The notes below the pieces were generated by a model. The model saw only the letters and a program-made list of their open reading frames with translations. It did no database searches and was not told where the DNA came from. A DNA stretch of 4,790 nt, taken from positions 1 to 4,790 of IMG/VR virus record IMGVR_UViG_2529292721_000007. One strand, given 5' to 3'. Each line of letters starts with the position of its first letter. Position 1 is the first letter of the stretch. Source of the stretch: a virus (Duplodnaviria; Heunggongvirae; Uroviricota; Caudoviricetes). Both the position numbers and the translations under genes were made by a program. Shown in pieces: positions 1-4,790 of the stretch.

Positions 1-1
1 G

Positions 2-214
2 GCAGATGATCCGCATCACATCATTGGTCATGGACTGGGAGGGATGGGAACAAAGGCTGATGATTTGTTTGTTATTCCGCTGTGCCGTAAATGCCATAGC
101 GAACTACACGCCGGGGTAAAAGATTTTGAAGAAAAACACGGCAGCCAGCTGTTGTTGCTGATTCGTTTTTTAATGCACGCGAGAAATTCGGGTGTCCTGA
201 AGTGGAAAGCATGA
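2..214 (+). CDS. C-terminal fragment of a DUF968-family (YdfU-like) nin-region protein; 5' end lies outside the window
   Basis: Open frame runs from the window edge to TGA at 212-214. Translation ends ...HHIIGHGLGGMGTKADDLFVIPLCRKCHSELHAGVKDFEEKHGSQLLLLIRFLMHARNSGVLKWKA, with a CxxCH...H motif. Sits immediately upstream of rusA, as in lambdoid nin regions. Family assignment is from memory, not a search. Confidence 0.55.
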   Translation, partial: ADDPHHIIGHGLGGMGTKADDLFVIPLCRKCHSELHAGVKDFEEKHGSQLLLLIRFLMHARNSGVLKWKA

Positions 215-580
215 ATGACTGAACGCATAGAATTTGTTTTGCCTTACCCGCCAACGGTGAACACTTACTGGCGACGTCGTGGCAGCACATATTTTGTATC
301 AAAAGCCGGTGAGCGTTATCGCCGTGATGTGGCGCTTATTGTTCGCCAGCAGCGGCTGAAATTAAACCTGTCCGGAAGGCTGGTGATAAAGATTATTGCA
401 GAGCCACCGGATAAACGTCGTCGTGACCTGGACAATATCCTGAAAGCACCACTGGATGCGCTGACGCATGCCGGACTTCTCATAGACGACGAGCAGTTTG
501 ATGAAATCAATATTGTGCGCGGTCAGCGCGTTCCTGGGGGGCGGCTGGGCGTGAAGATTTACAAAATTGAGAGTGAGTGA
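215..580 (+). CDS. rusA: Crossover junction endodeoxyribonuclease RusA (Holliday junction resolvase)
   Basis: 121-aa ORF whose ATG at 215 directly abuts the upstream stop (TGAATG). Contains RRRDLDN and LIDDEQ acidic motifs matching the RusA Asp active-site pattern. Size and position (before Q) are typical of lambdoid rusA. Confidence 0.85.
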   Translation: MTERIEFVLPYPPTVNTYWRRRGSTYFVSKAGERYRRDVALIVRQQRLKLNLSGRLVIKIIAEPPDKRRRDLDNILKAPLDALTHAGLLIDDEQFDEINIVRGQRVPGGRLGVKIYKIESE

Positions 581-588
581 TCGTAAAT

Positions 589-1131
589 ATGATATACCCG
601 GAAATTACAGGCAAAAGCGGCGAGCATTTACGTCTAAAAACGCTGGAAGCCGTCTGGATCCAGGGGAAATTACGGATGTGGGGGCGTTGGTCGTATATAG
701 GTGGTGGCAAACCAGGAAATATGTTCAATCAGTTGCTGGCATCCAAAAAACTGACAAAAACCGCAATCAATGAAGCCCTGCGTAGAATCAGGGAGTCAGG
801 GATTGATAAACCAGAGCTGGAAGCATTCTTGCGAGAGATGATCGCTGGCAGACAGAAGAGCTGGTTGTCTCACTGTACTGATGCAGAGGCGTTACGCATT
901 GATGGGGTGATAAGTAAAGCGCTTGCACGTTATCCTGGATTGATTGATATCCTGCGGCAAAGGTACGAAGGGCGGGGGATGAGTAAACGCAAAATGGCTG
1001 AATTGTTGAATGAGGTTCACCCTGAGTGGTGCTATGCAACATGCCGCAATCGTATAGATATGTGGCTGAGAATAGCTGAGTTTATTCTGTATCCACTGAT
1101 GCGAGATGCATTTTCTTTTACTGACGCTTAG
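589..1131 (+). CDS. Putative late-gene antiterminator, Q-like
   Basis: Roughly 180-aa ORF overlapping or abutting the rusA stop. Start is ambiguous: ATG at 589 or GTG at 577, both with weak SD, so translational coupling to rusA is likely. Contains LRMWGRW, reminiscent of the WG-W motif in Q-family proteins. Lies immediately upstream of a promoter-terminator interval and late genes, the canonical Q position. Confidence 0.6.
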   Translation: MIYPEITGKSGEHLRLKTLEAVWIQGKLRMWGRWSYIGGGKPGNMFNQLLASKKLTKTAINEALRRIRESGIDKPELEAFLREMIAGRQKSWLSHCTDAEALRIDGVISKALARYPGLIDILRQRYEGRGMSKRKMAELLNEVHPEWCYATCRNRIDMWLRIAEFILYPLMRDAFSFTDA

Positions 1132-1151
1132 AATCTGGAGGGCGTTTGTTG

Positions 1152-1229
1152 TTGCACGAAGAGGATTTTTGGCTGGTAGTAAGGTTTGTGCAGTTTTAGA
1201 AAAAAAGCTTGTATTTTTAGCCATAAACT
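1152..1229 (+). promoter_or_regulatory. Candidate late promoter (pR'-like) and Q-utilisation region
   Basis: AT-rich interval between the Q stop and a strong intrinsic terminator. Candidate hexamers are TTGCAC (1152-1157) with TAGTAA (1177-1182) at a 19-bp spacer, and a TG-TATTTT extended -10-like element at 1210-1217. The exact -35/-10 and start site cannot be fixed by eye. Confidence 0.3.
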
Positions 1230-1293
1230 GTTTCAATCCAGCTACGCTTCGCAAAGCTGTACCGCGAGGCGAATAGCAGACATGGACACCTGA

Positions 1294-1320
1294 AAGAACC
1301 CGCTTTATGCGGGTTTTTTT
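1294..1320 (+). terminator. Rho-independent terminator (tR'-like) ending the short late leader transcript
   Basis: AACCCGC (1297-1303), loop TTTAT, GCGGGTT (1309-1315), followed by a T-run through 1320. Classic GC stem plus U-tract immediately downstream of the Q gene. Confidence 0.8.
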
Positions 1321-1443
1321 ATGCCTGAAAAACGGCACAGAACATTAAACGCGCTGGTAGTTGTGAATACTGGTCTTTCAGCTTGCTGGCTTTTTCGACA
1401 AGAGGTATTGGTATGTCACGTTAACCAGAAAAGGGAAAAAGGC

Positions 1444-1641
1444 ATGCTAAAACAGCAGGATATGACCGAAACCGCCAGAGTGGTGTTTAATGAATTAAGC
1501 GTCACCGAACCGGCGACCGTCGGGGAAATTGCGCAGAATACTTACCTTTCACGCGAACGCTGCCAGTTAATACTGACTCAGCTTGTTATGGCGGGTCTGG
1601 CAGATTATCAGTTCGGTTGTTACAGACGCCTTCCGCAGTGA
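1444..1641 (+). CDS. Small (65-aa) putative winged-helix / HTH DNA-binding protein
   Basis: The six-frame ORF 1321..1641 is trimmed to ATG 1444, which has an AAGGGA SD 7 nt upstream (1431-1436); ATG 1321 sits inside the terminator T-run with no SD. Segment ATVGEIAQNTYLSRERCQLILTQLVMAGL has a helix-turn-helix character. Function unknown. Confidence 0.5.
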   Translation: MLKQQDMTETARVVFNELSVTEPATVGEIAQNTYLSRERCQLILTQLVMAGLADYQFGCYRRLPQ

Positions 1642-1667
1642 AGGCTTTTTAATTTGTGGTAATGGGC

Positions 1668-1698
1668 GGCTGGTGGGTGTTAGCGGCACCTGCCAGCC
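1668..1698 (+). promoter_or_regulatory. Imperfect 12-bp inverted repeat (candidate operator or RNA hairpin) between the HTH gene and the methyltransferase gene
   Basis: GGCTGGTGGGTG (1668-1679), 7-nt spacer TTAGCGG, CACCTGCCAGCC (1687-1698). Ten of 12 positions are Watson-Crick complementary; the other two are adjacent G/T pairs, which would be G-U pairs in RNA. No U-tract follows. Confidence 0.35.
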
Positions 1699-1791
1699 AT
1701 CTGCTCATGCGTTGGGGTCACAAGCAAACCTCAGGCCCATCTGCTTTGCGCAAAAGCGGTATGAGCCTATCAGAGAAGTGCTTATTGATCT

Positions 1792-2841
1792 ATGATTAAT
1801 ACTGTAAAAATATCCAGTTGTGAGTTAATCAACGCTGATTGCCTGGAGTTTATCCAGACCTTACCGGAAAACTCTGTCGATCTGATAGTCACAGACCCGC
1901 CATACTTTAAAGTGAAGCCCGAGGGCTGGGATAACCAGTGGGAGGGCGACGATGATTACCTGAAATGGCTGGACCAGTGTCTGGCGCAGTTCTGGCGGGT
2001 ACTGAAGCCTGCCGGAAGTCTTTACCTGTTCTGTGGTCATCGCCTGGCATCTGACACCGAAATCATGATGCGTGAGCGCTTTAATGTGCTGAACCACATT
2101 ATCTGGGCGAAGCCGTCCGGACGCTGGAACGGGTGCAATAAGGAAAGTCTGCGGGCGTATTTTCCGGCAACAGAGCGCATTCTGTTTGCAGAACATTATC
2201 AGGGACCGTATCGCCCGAAAGATGATGGCTATGTGGCACAGGGGCGCGAGCTAAAACAGCACGTCATGGCCCCGCTGATTTCTTACTTTCGTGATGCGCG
2301 TAAATCACTGGGAATAACGTCAAAACAGATAGCGGAAGCCACCGGAAAGAAAAACATGGCTTCGCACTGGTTTGGTACCAGTCAGTGGCAGTTACCGAAC
2401 GAGGGTGATTACAACAAATTGCAGGCGTTGTTTGCGCGTGTTGCGGCAGAAAAACATCAGCGCGGGGAACTGGAAAAGCCACACCACCAGCTGGTCAGCA
2501 CATACAGTGAGCTGAACCGGCAGTATACGGAACTGCTGAGTGAATATAAAAATTTGCGGCGGTATTTCGGTGTGACGGCGCAGGTTCCGTACACCGATGT
2601 CTGGACGCATAAACCGGTGCAGTACTATCCAGGGAAACATCCGTGCGAAAAACCGGCAGAAATGCTGCAGCAGATAATCAACGCGAGCAGTCGTCCGGGA
2701 GACCTGGTTGCAGATTTTTTTATGGGTTCAGGTTCAACGGTAAAAGCGGCGATGGCACTGGGGCGTTGTGCGATTGGTGTTGAGCTGGAGACCGGACGTT
2801 TTGAACAGACAGTCAGGGAAGTTCAGGATTTAATCGTTTGA
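1792..2841 (+). CDS. Orphan DNA methyltransferase, beta-class (circularly permuted), probably N6-adenine-specific
   Basis: 349-aa ORF. Motif IV DPPY at aa 35-38 (nt 1894-1905) near the N-terminus; AdoMet-binding motif I FMGSGS at aa 310-315 (nt 2719-2736) near the C-terminus, with a long putative target-recognition region between. This IV-then-I order defines beta-class amino-MTases. No restriction endonuclease candidate is adjacent. Confidence 0.85.
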   Translation: MINTVKISSCELINADCLEFIQTLPENSVDLIVTDPPYFKVKPEGWDNQWEGDDDYLKWLDQCLAQFWRVLKPAGSLYLFCGHRLASDTEIMMRERFNVLNHIIWAKPSGRWNGCNKESLRAYFPATERILFAEHYQGPYRPKDDGYVAQGRELKQHVMAPLISYFRDARKSLGITSKQIAEATGKKNMASHWFGTSQWQLPNEGDYNKLQALFARVAAEKHQRGELEKPHHQLVSTYSELNRQYTELLSEYKNLRRYFGVTAQVPYTDVWTHKPVQYYPGKHPCEKPAEMLQQIINASSRPGDLVADFFMGSGSTVKAAMALGRCAIGVELETGRFEQTVREVQDLIV

Positions 2842-2852
2842 AACGGATGAGA

Positions 2853-2881
2853 TTGCAGAATTAATTACGCACCATTATTAT
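2853..2881 (+). promoter_or_regulatory. Candidate sigma70 promoter for the tRNA cluster
   Basis: TTGCAG (2853-2858), 17-bp spacer, TATTAT (2876-2881). The predicted start falls a few nt upstream of the first tRNA 5' end at 2891. Confidence 0.5.
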
Positions 2882-2890
2882 TCTGCTCCC

Positions 2891-2966
2891 GGCCCTTTAG
2901 CTCAGTGGTGAGAGCGAGCGACTCATAATCGCCAGGTCGCTGGTTCAAATCCAGCAAGGGCCACCA
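2891..2966 (+). tRNA. ileZ: tRNA with CAT anticodon, ileX/ileZ-like (tRNA-Ile2, lysidine-type); tRNA-Met cannot be formally excluded from sequence alone
   Basis: Cloverleaf read by hand: acceptor GGCCCTT/AAGGGCC, D-arm GCTC-AGTGGTGA-GAGC, anticodon loop CTCATAA (CAT), T-arm GCTGG-TTCAAAT-CCAGC, discriminator A, encoded CCA. Closely resembles E. coli ileX as recalled. Confidence 0.8.
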
Positions 2967-2973
2967 TCACATA

Positions 2974-3050
2974 CCGCCATTAGCTCATCAGGATAGAGCG
3001 CCAGCCTTCGAAGCTGGTTGCGCGGGGTTCGAGTCCTCGATGGCGGTCCA
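2974..3050 (+). tRNA. argN: tRNA-Arg (anticodon TCG)
   Basis: Acceptor CCGCCAT/ATGGCGG (C1-G72), D-arm GCTC-ATCAGGATA-GAGC, anticodon stem CCAGC/GCTGG with loop CTTCGAA (TCG), T-arm CGGGG-TTCGAGT-CCTCG, discriminator T, encoded CCA. Confidence 0.75.
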
Positions 3051-3063
3051 TTATCTGTACCCT

Positions 3064-3140
3064 GCGTTGTTAGCTCAGCCGGACAGAGCAATTGCCTTCT
3101 AAGCAATCGGTCACTGGTTCGAATCCAGTACAACGCGCCA
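3064..3140 (+). tRNA. argO: tRNA-Arg (anticodon TCT, reads rare AGA/AGG codons)
   Basis: Acceptor GCGTTGT/ACAACGC, D-arm GCTC-AGCCGGACA-GAGC, anticodon stem ATTGC/GCAAT with loop CTTCTAA (TCT), T-arm ACTGG-TTCGAAT-CCAGT, discriminator G, encoded CCA. Confidence 0.8.
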
Positions 3141-3281
3141 CGCTTATTTTTCCAGGCTCGCTACGGCGGGTCTTTTTCATATCCGCGTCACGTCAGGCGC
3201 ACATCAAACAAACACAGAATCTTTCAGGGGGCGGGATAGTCAGTGTGACGTTCTCTGGGGGCCTGTCACTTCCGGGGATAG

Positions 3282-3303
3282 GTGTTTTTACGGGCTGCTG
3301 GTG
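3282..3303 (+). terminator. Weak hairpin plus T-tract just upstream of the lysis-gene RBS (possible attenuator or partial terminator)
   Basis: GGGC (3282-3285), 8-nt loop, GCCC (3294-3297), then TTTTTT (3298-3303). The stem is short, so termination efficiency is probably low. Confidence 0.25.
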
Positions 3304-3332
3304 GCCCTTTTTTATTTACAGGAGAAAGAAGT

Positions 3333-3725
3333 ATGTCTGAACCCTTATCCGGTTCCGGTACGGCTGCGGCGCTCGGCGGGGCGACGGTATTCGGGCTGTT
3401 TACCGGAATGGATTTCGGGATTGTGTTTGGCGCGTTCGCCGGGGCGTTATTTGTGGCAACGATGCCACAGTCACTTTCAGTCTGGCGCGTGGTGGCACAT
3501 TTTCTGGTGTCGTTTATTGTCGGCGTGCTGGGAGCGCGTGTGCTGTCAGCCTGGATTGCATCAAAAACAGGGTATGACGGTACATCAGCAGATGCGCTTT
3601 GCGCGGTGCTGGTCTCGGTGGTGTCGGTGAAGATTCTCTCGTTCATCCACCAGCAGGATATTGCATCGCTGGTGTCCGGTGTGTTCTCCCGCCTGCGGGG
3701 TGGAGGAGGCGGCAATGTTAAGTAA
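3333..3725 (+). CDS. Putative holin or lysis-associated membrane protein (130 aa, Gly/Ala-rich, three or four predicted transmembrane segments)
   Basis: ATG 3333 is preceded by a strong AGGAG SD (3321-3325). Hydrophobic stretches AAALGGATVFGLFTG, IVFGAFAGALFVATM, VVAHFLVSFIVGVLGARVL and ALCAVLVSVVSVKILSFI. First gene of a three-gene overlapped cassette ending in an endolysin. The antisense ORF 3266..3715 is judged spurious. Confidence 0.55.
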   Translation: MSEPLSGSGTAAALGGATVFGLFTGMDFGIVFGAFAGALFVATMPQSLSVWRVVAHFLVSFIVGVLGARVLSAWIASKTGYDGTSADALCAVLVSVVSVKILSFIHQQDIASLVSGVFSRLRGGGGGNVK

Positions 3726-3993
3726 CCTTCCCGGATTGCTGAATGTGGCGTTATGCACGGTTATCGTGCTGACGCTCTTTTTTTATCGTCGTCGTGATTC
3801 CAGACATAAACCGTTGATGTCATGGCTGGCCTGGCTGCTGATGCTGCTTTATGCCTTTGCACCACTCAGTTATCTGTGCGGTCGCCCGTTAGCGGCGAAC
3901 TGGCTGGCGGTGGGGCTTAATCTGCTGTTCTGCGTGTTGGTTATTCGCGCACGCGGGAACGTTTCAAAAATCTTTGTATTACGAAGACGCTGA
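3715..3993 (+). CDS. Second small membrane protein of the lysis cassette (92 aa; holin or antiholin-like)
   Basis: ATG 3715 is preceded by GGAGGAGG (3702-3709), which lies inside the upstream gene's C-terminal codons. Overlaps the upstream gene by 11 nt. Two or three hydrophobic segments (LLNVALCTVIVLTLFFY, LMSWLAWLLMLLYAFAPLSYL, WLAVGLNLLFCVLVI) and a basic tail. Stop TGA 3991-3993 lies 1 nt before the endolysin ATG. Confidence 0.5.
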   Translation: MLSNLPGLLNVALCTVIVLTLFFYRRRDSRHKPLMSWLAWLLMLLYAFAPLSYLCGRPLAANWLAVGLNLLFCVLVIRARGNVSKIFVLRRR

Positions 3994-3994
3994 T

Positions 3995-4540
3995 ATGAAG
4001 TCGAAAGATGAAATTTTTGACGAAGTTCTGGGAAAAGAGGGCGGTTACGTCAATCACCCGGATGATAAAGGCGGACCGACAAAATGGGGTATTACGGAAA
4101 AAGTCGCCCGCGCTCACGGATATCAGGGCGATATGCGTGACCTGACACGCGAACAGGCACTGGAAATCCTTGAGGCGGATTACTGGTTCGGACCACGCTT
4201 TGATCAGGTGGCCGCATTATCCTCTGATATTGCTGCAGAGTTGTGTGATACCGGTGTGAATATGGGGCCGTCCGTAGCATCGAAAATGCTCCAACGCTGG
4301 CTGAACGTTTTCAACCTGCAAGGCAAATTGTTCCCGGATATGGACGCAGACGGGCGTATCGGCCCCCGCACGATTAATGCACTACGGACTTATCTGCAAA
4401 AACGCGGCAAAGACGGCGAACTGGTGATGCTGAAGGCGCTGAATTGCACGCAGGGCGACCGCTATCTGGAGCTGGCAGAAAAACGCGAGGCCAACGAGTC
4501 GTTTGTCTACGGCTGGATGAAAGAGCGCGTAGCAGTTTAA
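3995..4540 (+). CDS. Endolysin: glycoside hydrolase family 108 N-terminal domain with a C-terminal peptidoglycan-binding domain
   Basis: 181 aa from ATG 3995; the six-frame ORF begins at an upstream TTG at 3974. N-terminal LGKEGGYVNHPDDKGGPTKWGIT carries the EGGY signature of GH108 lysozymes. The C-terminal half resembles the PG_binding_3-type module usually fused to GH108. Tightly coupled to the upstream membrane-protein genes. Confidence 0.85.
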   Translation: MKSKDEIFDEVLGKEGGYVNHPDDKGGPTKWGITEKVARAHGYQGDMRDLTREQALEILEADYWFGPRFDQVAALSSDIAAELCDTGVNMGPSVASKMLQRWLNVFNLQGKLFPDMDADGRIGPRTINALRTYLQKRGKDGELVMLKALNCTQGDRYLELAEKREANESFVYGWMKERVAV

Positions 4541-4633
4541 AAACTGACGCTGAAGTGCTGAACACCCTCAACTCACGCAGGCTCTTTTCTGGGGTTACGA
4601 TGAGCGAAAGTAAGGGGTACCGCATCAGATAGC

Positions 4634-4668
4634 AAAAACCCCGGCTGCTGGAACAGTCCGGGGTTTTT
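4634..4668 (+). terminator. Intrinsic terminator downstream of the lysis cassette (possibly bidirectional)
   Basis: A-run 4634-4638, stem CCCCGG (4639-4644) pairing with CCGGGG (4658-4663), loop extendable by CTG/CAG pairing, then TTTTT (4664-4668). Confidence 0.65.
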
Positions 4669-4759
4669 AGTTTTCACGTCAAAGAGGAAATTGTGAGTAG
4701 TGAGTACGGAGAAAATCCTCGTGGGAAAGTATAAAAGATTCTTTTTGAGGTTGTCCATT

Positions 4760-4790
4760 ATGAAAGGTATTGAAATGGAAACTCCCGCGA
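4760..4790 (+). CDS. 5' end of the next ORF (MKGIEMETPA...), function unknown; continues beyond the window
   Basis: ATG 4760 with GAGG (4747-4750) 9 nt upstream. Only 10 codons are visible, so no functional call is possible. Confidence 0.3.
   Translation, partial: MKGIEMETPA

Follow-up and report, generated by a model that had tools for sequence, protein, structure and literature searches.

The 4,790-nucleotide (nt) stretch analyzed here, positions 1 to 4,790 of the Caudoviricetes record IMGVR_UViG_2529292721_000007 and referred to as the window, belongs to a lambdoid prophage, of which it covers the part from late regulation to lysis. What follows its late terminator is, with a probability of roughly 0.7, the first cargo block of the late operon, a Q-controlled methyltransferase of the M.EcoGII type that bears a dedicated RNA leader. 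On the plus strand, this block consists of a gene for a 65-amino-acid (aa) winged-helix protein (1444-1641), a structured leader with a conserved tail (1651-1791) and the gene of a 349-aa orphan beta-class N6-adenine DNA methyltransferase (1792-2841), the module ending with three tRNA genes (2891-3140; all coordinates are positions in the window). A preliminary description of the same DNA had already proposed a Q-dependent cargo at this site, and terminator, small gene, methyltransferase gene and tRNA trio are all present where it had placed them; the structured leader and a conserved box upstream of the small gene were overlooked. Its main idea is right but already known, as the methyltransferase and the block are already annotated in many Shiga toxin (Stx) phages. 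By comparison with the retrieved literature, the covarying leader RNA, the box before the small gene and the strict placement behind four families of Q genes appear to be new, and the methyltransferase can be regarded as an additional M.EcoGII ortholog, borne by a prophage that lacks a toxin gene.

Judged from its sequence, the methyltransferase is a close ortholog of the characterized M.EcoGII and as such an ordinary enzyme. It matches Pfam PF01555 (N6_N4_Mtase) over residues 29-340 with E=2.1e-44 and 152.5 bits, above the curated cut-off of 26.7 bits, and bears DPPY at residues 35-38 and FMGSGS at 310-315, i.e., the motif order of the beta class with the target-recognition region in between. 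Both motifs are invariant in an alignment of 20 homologs, and the best sequence matches in the PDB are beta-class methyltransferases as well, including M.RsrI, CcrM and M.MboIIA. Alignment with M.EcoGII as printed in Supplementary Table S1 of PMC11551740 (reference GenBank EGT69837.1, 349 aa) gives 317 identical residues at 350 aligned positions (91%) over the full 349 aa, the printed text having a few optical character recognition (OCR) errors. A further copy from an IMG/VR provirus (L114; L-numbers denote individual related loci) matches the printed M.EcoGII at 98.3%, with the differences mostly at evident OCR-error sites (NHHIW for NHIIW, RRRA for RRA), and would thus be M.EcoGII apart from such OCR-type differences. 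The window enzyme is 92% identical to this copy, and the L114 locus has the same small gene and leader upstream. Hence, the preliminary assignment to the orphan beta-class amino-methyltransferases, based on the two motifs, as well as the suspected resemblance to the M.EcoGII type are borne out, the latter by 91-92% identity at full length. A cognate restriction endonuclease gene was not found beside the methyltransferase gene, neither in the 4.8-kb window, for which this had also been claimed before, nor in the related loci; the remaining sizeable open reading frames (ORFs) of the window all represent phage functions (DUF968, RusA, Q-like protein, two holins and a GH108 endolysin). In being prophage-borne and in lacking a partner endonuclease, the enzyme resembles M.EcoGII and M.EcoGI, while differing from M.EcoGII by 32 substitutions, mostly in the target-recognition region. 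Further differences are that its prophage carries no toxin gene and encodes a Q of the DUF1133 type. The methyltransferase family amounts to 2905 proteins at E≤1e-20 and extends across the recovered enterobacterial genera.

The gene preceding the block (577-1131, plus strand) encodes a Q-like late antiterminator of 184 aa and of the DUF1133 type, which matches PF06576 at E=2e-101, PF06530 (Phage_antitermQ) with 27.8 bits at a cut-off of 26 and PHROG 753, 'anti-termination protein Q-like', at E=9e-79. About 160 nt past its stop codon, a strong intrinsic terminator of the tR' kind is located (1291-1320, plus strand), with a hairpin of -20.6 kcal/mol (z=-5.6, 0 of 200 shuffles being as good) and a subsequent U7 run. 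A simple terminator scan overlooked it, probably because the A-U extension of the hairpin consumes the U-run. A terminator likewise comes immediately before the module in 80 loci of other species, and the gene ahead of this terminator is a Q antiterminator from one of four Pfam families (PF03589, PF06530, PF06576 and PF06323). Since the block recombines behind four unrelated Q types, always after a terminator and before the lysis genes, it is best read as the first cargo of a Q-dependent late transcript. The preliminary description had recognized this position between Q gene and terminator on the one side and tRNA genes on the other as the stx slot; phiP27 and Stx2 phages indeed carry stx there, and the same block is found before stx in 297 phage records, i.e., in about 300 Stx phage records, as well as in phiP27. 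According to PMC5778455, lysogens do not express M.EcoGI or M.EcoGII, and forced constitutive expression is deleterious. Late and Q-dependent expression of the module, the main idea of the preliminary description, would fit this silence as well as the location behind four Q families and a terminator.

Between terminator and small gene, a conserved promoter-like box is found (1382-1419, plus strand), reading CTTGCTG-N17-TATTGG-TATGTCAC in the window. By eye, its consensus CTTGCTG-N17-TAYMTG-TRTGTCAC is present in essentially all of the about 55 loci with an intact upstream region, ranging from Escherichia to Photorhabdus, always with fixed spacing and about 25-30 nt ahead of the small-gene start codon. 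Conserved are a -35-like TTGCTG, a 17-nt spacer and the TA of a -10-like hexamer. The box may serve as an operator, as an RNA element or as a promoter that is weak or requires a further factor. A sigma-54 reading of the CTTGCTG box was rejected, as the upstream GG element is not conserved (by eye). Were the box a real promoter, transcription of the small gene would be independent of Q, and it is conceivable, albeit rather doubtful, that the small gene or possibly the whole block is transcribed from it in the lysogen. The small protein would then be a resident regulator, for example, repressing the methyltransferase or another phage or host target. The recurrence of the box in about 55 small-gene loci with constant spacing and distance to the start codon supports such a role, and a hairpin with U-run at the end of the small gene could stop the resulting transcript before it reaches the leader; moreover, loci have the small-gene sub-module either as a whole or not at all, with leader and methyltransferase gene remaining. 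However, as a sigma-70 promoter the box is poor, having G at position 6 of the -10-like hexamer and only three of six matches in the -35 region, and it is missed by the consensus scan. It could equally be an operator or an RNA-level element, and methylation by M.EcoGI and M.EcoGII is absent in lysogens, as stated in PMC5778455. The sub-module is flanked by a hexamer, TTGCTG at the start of the box (1383-1388) and TTTGTG in the 5' edge of the window leader (about 1652-1660), and the same is seen in related loci, which could reflect either a signal common to both sites or a scar of recombination.

The small gene itself is real and under strong purifying selection, with a ratio of nonsynonymous to synonymous substitution rates (dN/dS) of 0.03-0.13 in comparison with other genera, where synonymous sites are saturated. 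It is contained in a longer frame of 106 aa (1321-1641), the 65-aa form starting from ATG at 1444, and it is the latter form that RefSeq annotates in phiP27 (P27p23). Homologs of 62-67 aa lie directly upstream of the methyltransferase gene in about 56 of 80 genome loci, identity falling to 37-48% in Xenorhabdus and Photorhabdus, and the family of 334 proteins corresponds to PHROG 331, which is annotated without function. Conversely, the methyltransferase gene follows in 72 of the 73 small-gene loci with enough sequence. The sole locus without it (L292, 2708-2859) shows a weak and AT-rich leader match of 34 bits and its module has probably decayed or been disrupted. The fold predicted by AlphaFold2 is a winged helix (H1-H2-H3-beta hairpin) at a pLDDT (predicted local distance difference test) value of 92.5, with a strongly conserved helix 3, RCQLILTQL, which is the segment highlighted in the preliminary description. 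Among 23 family members, Pfam matches are limited to sub-threshold hits to TrmB, DprA_WH, MarR_2 and HTH_20, with no other helix-turn-helix (HTH) class appearing, and the 50 best Foldseek matches in the PDB comprise winged-helix domains of O-methyltransferases (N-terminal), OhrR/MarR, IclR, MotA and SelB. Hence, the model describes the small protein as a generic winged helix.

This bears on the proposal that the small protein controls the methyltransferase in the manner of a C protein or of PapI/FaeA, binding near the methyltransferase gene and timing its expression. The tight linkage of both genes, the strong purifying selection and the winged-helix fold with its conserved helix 3 all speak for such a function. 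On the other hand, about a quarter to a third of the methyltransferase loci lack the small gene yet keep leader and methyltransferase gene, so the small gene is dispensable for the enzyme. C proteins of restriction-modification systems are Xre-type HTH proteins, whereas the small protein is a winged helix with sub-threshold matches to winged-helix families only, though a conserved upstream box is present here, too; a C-protein-like role would be possible only by analogy. With PapI/FaeA, the small protein shares size and the winged-helix fold, but none of the 23 family members matches PF04703 (FaeA-like) at E≤1, PapI is absent from the 50 best structural matches, and a phase-variation context of the Lrp/Dam type is lacking. 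The PapI/FaeA link drawn in the preliminary description is therefore rejected, with neither hidden Markov model nor structural support. Likewise, a winged helix reading N6-methyladenine (m6A) like that of DpnI was considered and found unsupported, as DpnI is absent from the PDB profile matches and from the 50 best folds. In sum, control of the methyltransferase by the small protein appears unlikely.

At the end of the small gene, a GC-rich hairpin followed by a U5 run forms a terminator-like site (1628-1650, plus strand). It recurs at the same position in most loci, but its fold is no better than that of shuffled sequences (z=-0.3), and its termination activity is uncertain. Its loop holds the small-gene stop codon (1628-1645 in the window, and in most related loci). 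Ribosomes that terminate there would melt the hairpin, so that read-through into the leader could be influenced by whether the small gene is being translated.

M.EcoGI and M.EcoGII, reportedly described by Fang in 2012, are adenine DNA methyltransferases without sequence specificity that prophages of E. coli O104:H4 C227-11 encode. In PMC5778455 (Murray 2018), M.EcoGII is characterized as a 349-aa beta-class enzyme methylating adenine in any context and, in vitro, also RNA; M.EcoGI, with 333 of 349 residues identical, is likewise non-specific, and a very similar enzyme is encoded by phage 1720a-02. Furthermore, rate assays in PMC11551740 (Supplementary Table S3) show that methylation of DNA and RNA is retained in the reconstructed ancestors Anc291 and SUPREM; there, the wild-type enzyme methylates RNA at a rate about 100-fold below that for DNA. 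Because M.EcoGI, M.EcoGII and these ancestors methylate DNA and RNA, the window copy is likely to be a non-specific adenine methyltransferase, too. About two thirds of the 32 substitutions relative to M.EcoGII fall into residues of about 135-260, i.e., into the target-recognition domain as delimited in PMC11551740, which could be taken to indicate that the ortholog is sequence-specific or acts mainly on RNA, for example, on adjacent tRNAs or late mRNAs. The in vitro activity of M.EcoGII on RNA and the tRNA or small RNA (sRNA) genes located after the methyltransferase gene would agree with this. We consider it quite improbable, however, since M.EcoGI and M.EcoGII differ at 16 positions with both being non-specific, the reconstructed ancestors retain activity on DNA and RNA alike, and RNA is by far the slower substrate.

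The interval of 150 nt between small gene and methyltransferase gene (1642-1791) is conserved at 72-83% identity in 50 loci, and this conservation extends to loci without the small gene, in which a strong terminator directly abuts. Identity within the leader is 74-83% versus 35-38% at four-fold degenerate sites of the adjacent methyltransferase gene. Any given reading frame is open in at most 14 of 53 leader sequences, the frame of the methyltransferase always contains at least two stops, and variability is without 3-periodicity. Hence, the leader is selected as non-coding sequence, and coding potential was rejected on the basis of frames and periodicity in these 53 sequences. RNAalifold in combination with manual inspection reveals four helices on the plus strand, arranged as a three-way junction and a separate hairpin. 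The junction is closed by P1 (UGGGC/GCCCA, 1663-1667/1735-1739) and comprises P2 (GGCUGG-GGGUG/CACCC-CCAGCC, 1668-1679/1687-1698) and P3 (UUCGCU..UG/CA..AGCGAA, 1700-1709/1719-1728), while P4 (UGCUUU/AAAGCA, 1741-1747/1753-1759) forms the separate hairpin. Next comes a conserved tail of about 45 nt, which lacks a Shine-Dalgarno sequence, terminates in GAUCUAUG and carries GATC directly ahead of the ATG.

The four helices are supported by covariation. In the covariance-model alignment, 95.3% of the cells are paired and 12 of 30 pairs show double changes, which was reached by 0 of 500 shuffles, compared with 30-43% paired cells in slid controls; as this alignment leans to the structure of the model itself, the MAFFT-only alignment is the less biased check, giving 78.7% paired cells with P4 mis-registered, double changes in 13 pairs, again 0 of 500 shuffles, and 25-61% in slid controls. 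Because G-U pairs are common, A-C pairs are rare and changes are compensatory, the structure is that of an RNA transcribed from the plus strand. The covariance model R1 retrieves 53 sources at E<1e-19, all on the plus strand and all ending at the methyltransferase ATG. Independently of the model, viral contigs scanned for a 17-base core motif alone yield 80 loci, in 78 of which the methyltransferase ATG lies 73-74 nt downstream; of the other two, one is at a contig end and one is without the N-terminal part of the methyltransferase match. As motif-only matches sit at a fixed distance before the gene, the element is a dedicated 5' leader of this methyltransferase family. The corresponding leaders of Xenorhabdus and Photorhabdus (L051-L082) keep the 5' GUGAAAUGG and the P2 hairpin, are without the P1 3' strand and P4, and are scored by the covariance model at E values of about 0.06-0.5.

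A small coding region, such as a coupled upstream ORF, or a DNA-level site in place of a regulatory RNA is very improbable for the interval, because the TGA overlapping the methyltransferase ATG (ATGA) in one frame of many loci, although reminiscent of coupling, and the conserved GATC stand against frames that are neither open nor periodic and are shifted by indels between loci, as well as against compensatory changes, abundant G-U and few A-C pairs pointing to a plus-strand RNA. None of the 4227 families of Rfam 15 matches at E≤1 on the whole window in a way overlapping the leader, a search of 1620-1810 at E≤10 gives a single match, a chance miRNA, and five divergent loci show nothing overlapping the leader at gathering score. 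A full-text literature search with the conserved strings of the leader retrieved unrelated papers only, the main text of a paper on 224 motifs holds no methylase-associated enterobacterial motif, and in the available sections of the M.EcoGII literature (PMC5778455, PMC11551740) leader RNA, box and small protein are not mentioned.

For the window leader, the fold of minimum free energy is not the one supported by covariation. In this alternative fold, GCUUAnUGAUC immediately ahead of the AUG is paired to GGUCAcAAGC, which comprises the P3 loop and 3' strand, and a helix termed P1' arises between GUGAGCCU and the 3' strand of P1. Both folds are nearly iso-energetic, with means of -48.0 and -50.1 kcal/mol over 53 sequences, and P1' has three pairs with double changes, a number reached by 1 of 500 shuffles. 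Two other pairings were discarded, a local hairpin AUCAG/CUGAU before the ATG, which by eye is broken without compensation in many sequences, and GCUCAU/GUGAGC, which shows no covariation. The odds are about even that the leader gates translation of the toxic enzyme by switching between these folds. More tentatively, it might represent an undescribed class of cis-regulatory RNAs for M.EcoGII-type methyltransferases with signal-switched folds, to which the small protein and the box add a second layer of control. Candidate signals are the methyltransferase itself, i.e., autogenous control, S-adenosylmethionine or S-adenosylhomocysteine, and a late phage factor. If true, translation of a toxic and promiscuous enzyme would be licensed only at the right moment. 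With riboswitches and leaders serving as translational operators, the element has in common a covarying structure in the 5' untranslated region at a fixed distance to one gene family, highly conserved loops and junctions, and two folds that may compete, of which one would cover the start. In contrast to these, it matches no Rfam family, its sequestering helix lacks covariation, and a terminator-type expression platform is not present.

Several findings weigh against the proposed Q-controlled and leader-bearing module. A sigma-70 consensus scan of the plus strand found no promoter in 1132-1290, only weak pR' candidates being visible by eye, and the conserved box downstream of the terminator could enable Q-independent transcription of at least the small gene. 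The differences in the target-recognition region make the non-specificity of this ortholog no more than likely. Concerning the leader, the helix sequestering the start site is conserved but without covariation, and the sequestering fold falls far behind the junction fold in stability when the most divergent loci are considered. Finally, the Xenorhabdus and Photorhabdus loci (L051-L082) have a shortened leader about 110 nt upstream of the methyltransferase gene, so that the full leader is not universal in the family.

The closest known arrangement is that of phiP27 and Stx2 phages such as 1720a-02 and Stx2a_1447, with which the window shares 89-90% nucleotide identity (89% for 1720a-02) over 1309-3187, with small gene, leader, methyltransferase gene and tRNA genes in the same order. 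However, the window passes from the tRNAs directly to the holins with an empty toxin slot, whereas phiP27 has the stx2e A and B genes there. As homology starts only inside the terminator (1309), the Q gene of the window and the RNA between Q and terminator are of another type. In phiP27 (L001, 1689-2918), a GIY-YIG nuclease gene is located between the Q-like gene and the block of small gene and methyltransferase gene, which could be a homing-type insertion at the same junction. The layout of Q gene, short non-coding interval, strong terminator and late genes also resembles the lambda pR'-6S RNA-tR' arrangement and StxS RNA (Sy 2020, PMC7547250). In contrast to lambda 6S and StxS, a pR' was not located in the window by consensus scan, and the interval is not homologous to that of StxS-carrying phages, homology starting at 1309. 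Rfam matches in the interval (1132-1322) are sub-threshold, AgrB RF02891 at 27 bits and isrK RF01394 at 21.6 bits; the interval may encode a short RNA similar to 6S and StxS but belonging to another sequence family.

Upstream of the Q-like gene, a DUF968 fragment (44-214) and a RusA gene (215-580) were identified by profile matches. The tRNA trio on the plus strand, assigned by ARAGORN and Rfam tRNA matches, has the anticodons CAT, TCG (Arg) and TCT (Arg) and is likewise annotated in Stx2 phage records. ARAGORN assigns the CAT-anticodon tRNA (2891-2966) to Met, while it is ileZ (tRNA-Ile, lysidine type) in phiP27 and several Stx2 phage records. At the position of the three tRNAs, about 100 nt downstream of the methyltransferase gene, locus L009 has two tandem copies of the sRNA STnc100 (5145-5548; 75 and 74 bits, above gathering score). 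Two holin genes directly follow the tRNAs of the window, with two or three terminator-like hairpins in between (3141-3281), and then a GH108 endolysin gene, all by profile matches. The endolysin (3974-4540) combines GH108 with PG_binding_3, whereas the closest E. coli genomes, which are 99.3% identical over 86% of the window and several of which carry strain names of enterotoxigenic E. coli, have an M15 metallopeptidase instead; since the endolysin type differs, a mosaic junction in the lysis cassette is indicated.

Taken as a late module, the block would work as follows. In lysogeny, transcription from the late promoter would halt at the terminator (1291-1320). Upon induction, RNA polymerase modified by Q would pass it and transcribe the small gene, the leader of about 140 nt, the methyltransferase gene and, subsequently, tRNA and lysis genes. 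The enzyme would then most likely methylate adenines with little or no sequence preference, by which progeny phage DNA could be protected from many restriction systems blocked by m6A. As the enzyme is harmful to the cell, its synthesis would in this model be held down at two levels, transcription being controlled by terminator and Q, and translation by the dedicated leader, which is without Shine-Dalgarno sequence and would adopt either the three-way junction or the alternative fold pairing the bases before the start codon.

In the available sections of the published work, regulation of M.EcoGII is covered by its silence in lysogens and its harm when expressed, and by no more than that. The present comparison places the family first in the late operon, behind four unrelated Q families, with a leader and usually with a small winged-helix protein. 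This gives a handle on how phages may use a methylase acting on the whole genome and yet avoid a premature death of the host, and on how progeny DNA may escape restriction. M.EcoGII is a widely used reagent for chromatin and RNA footprinting, and leader, box and placement now make the natural regulation of this enzyme experimentally approachable.

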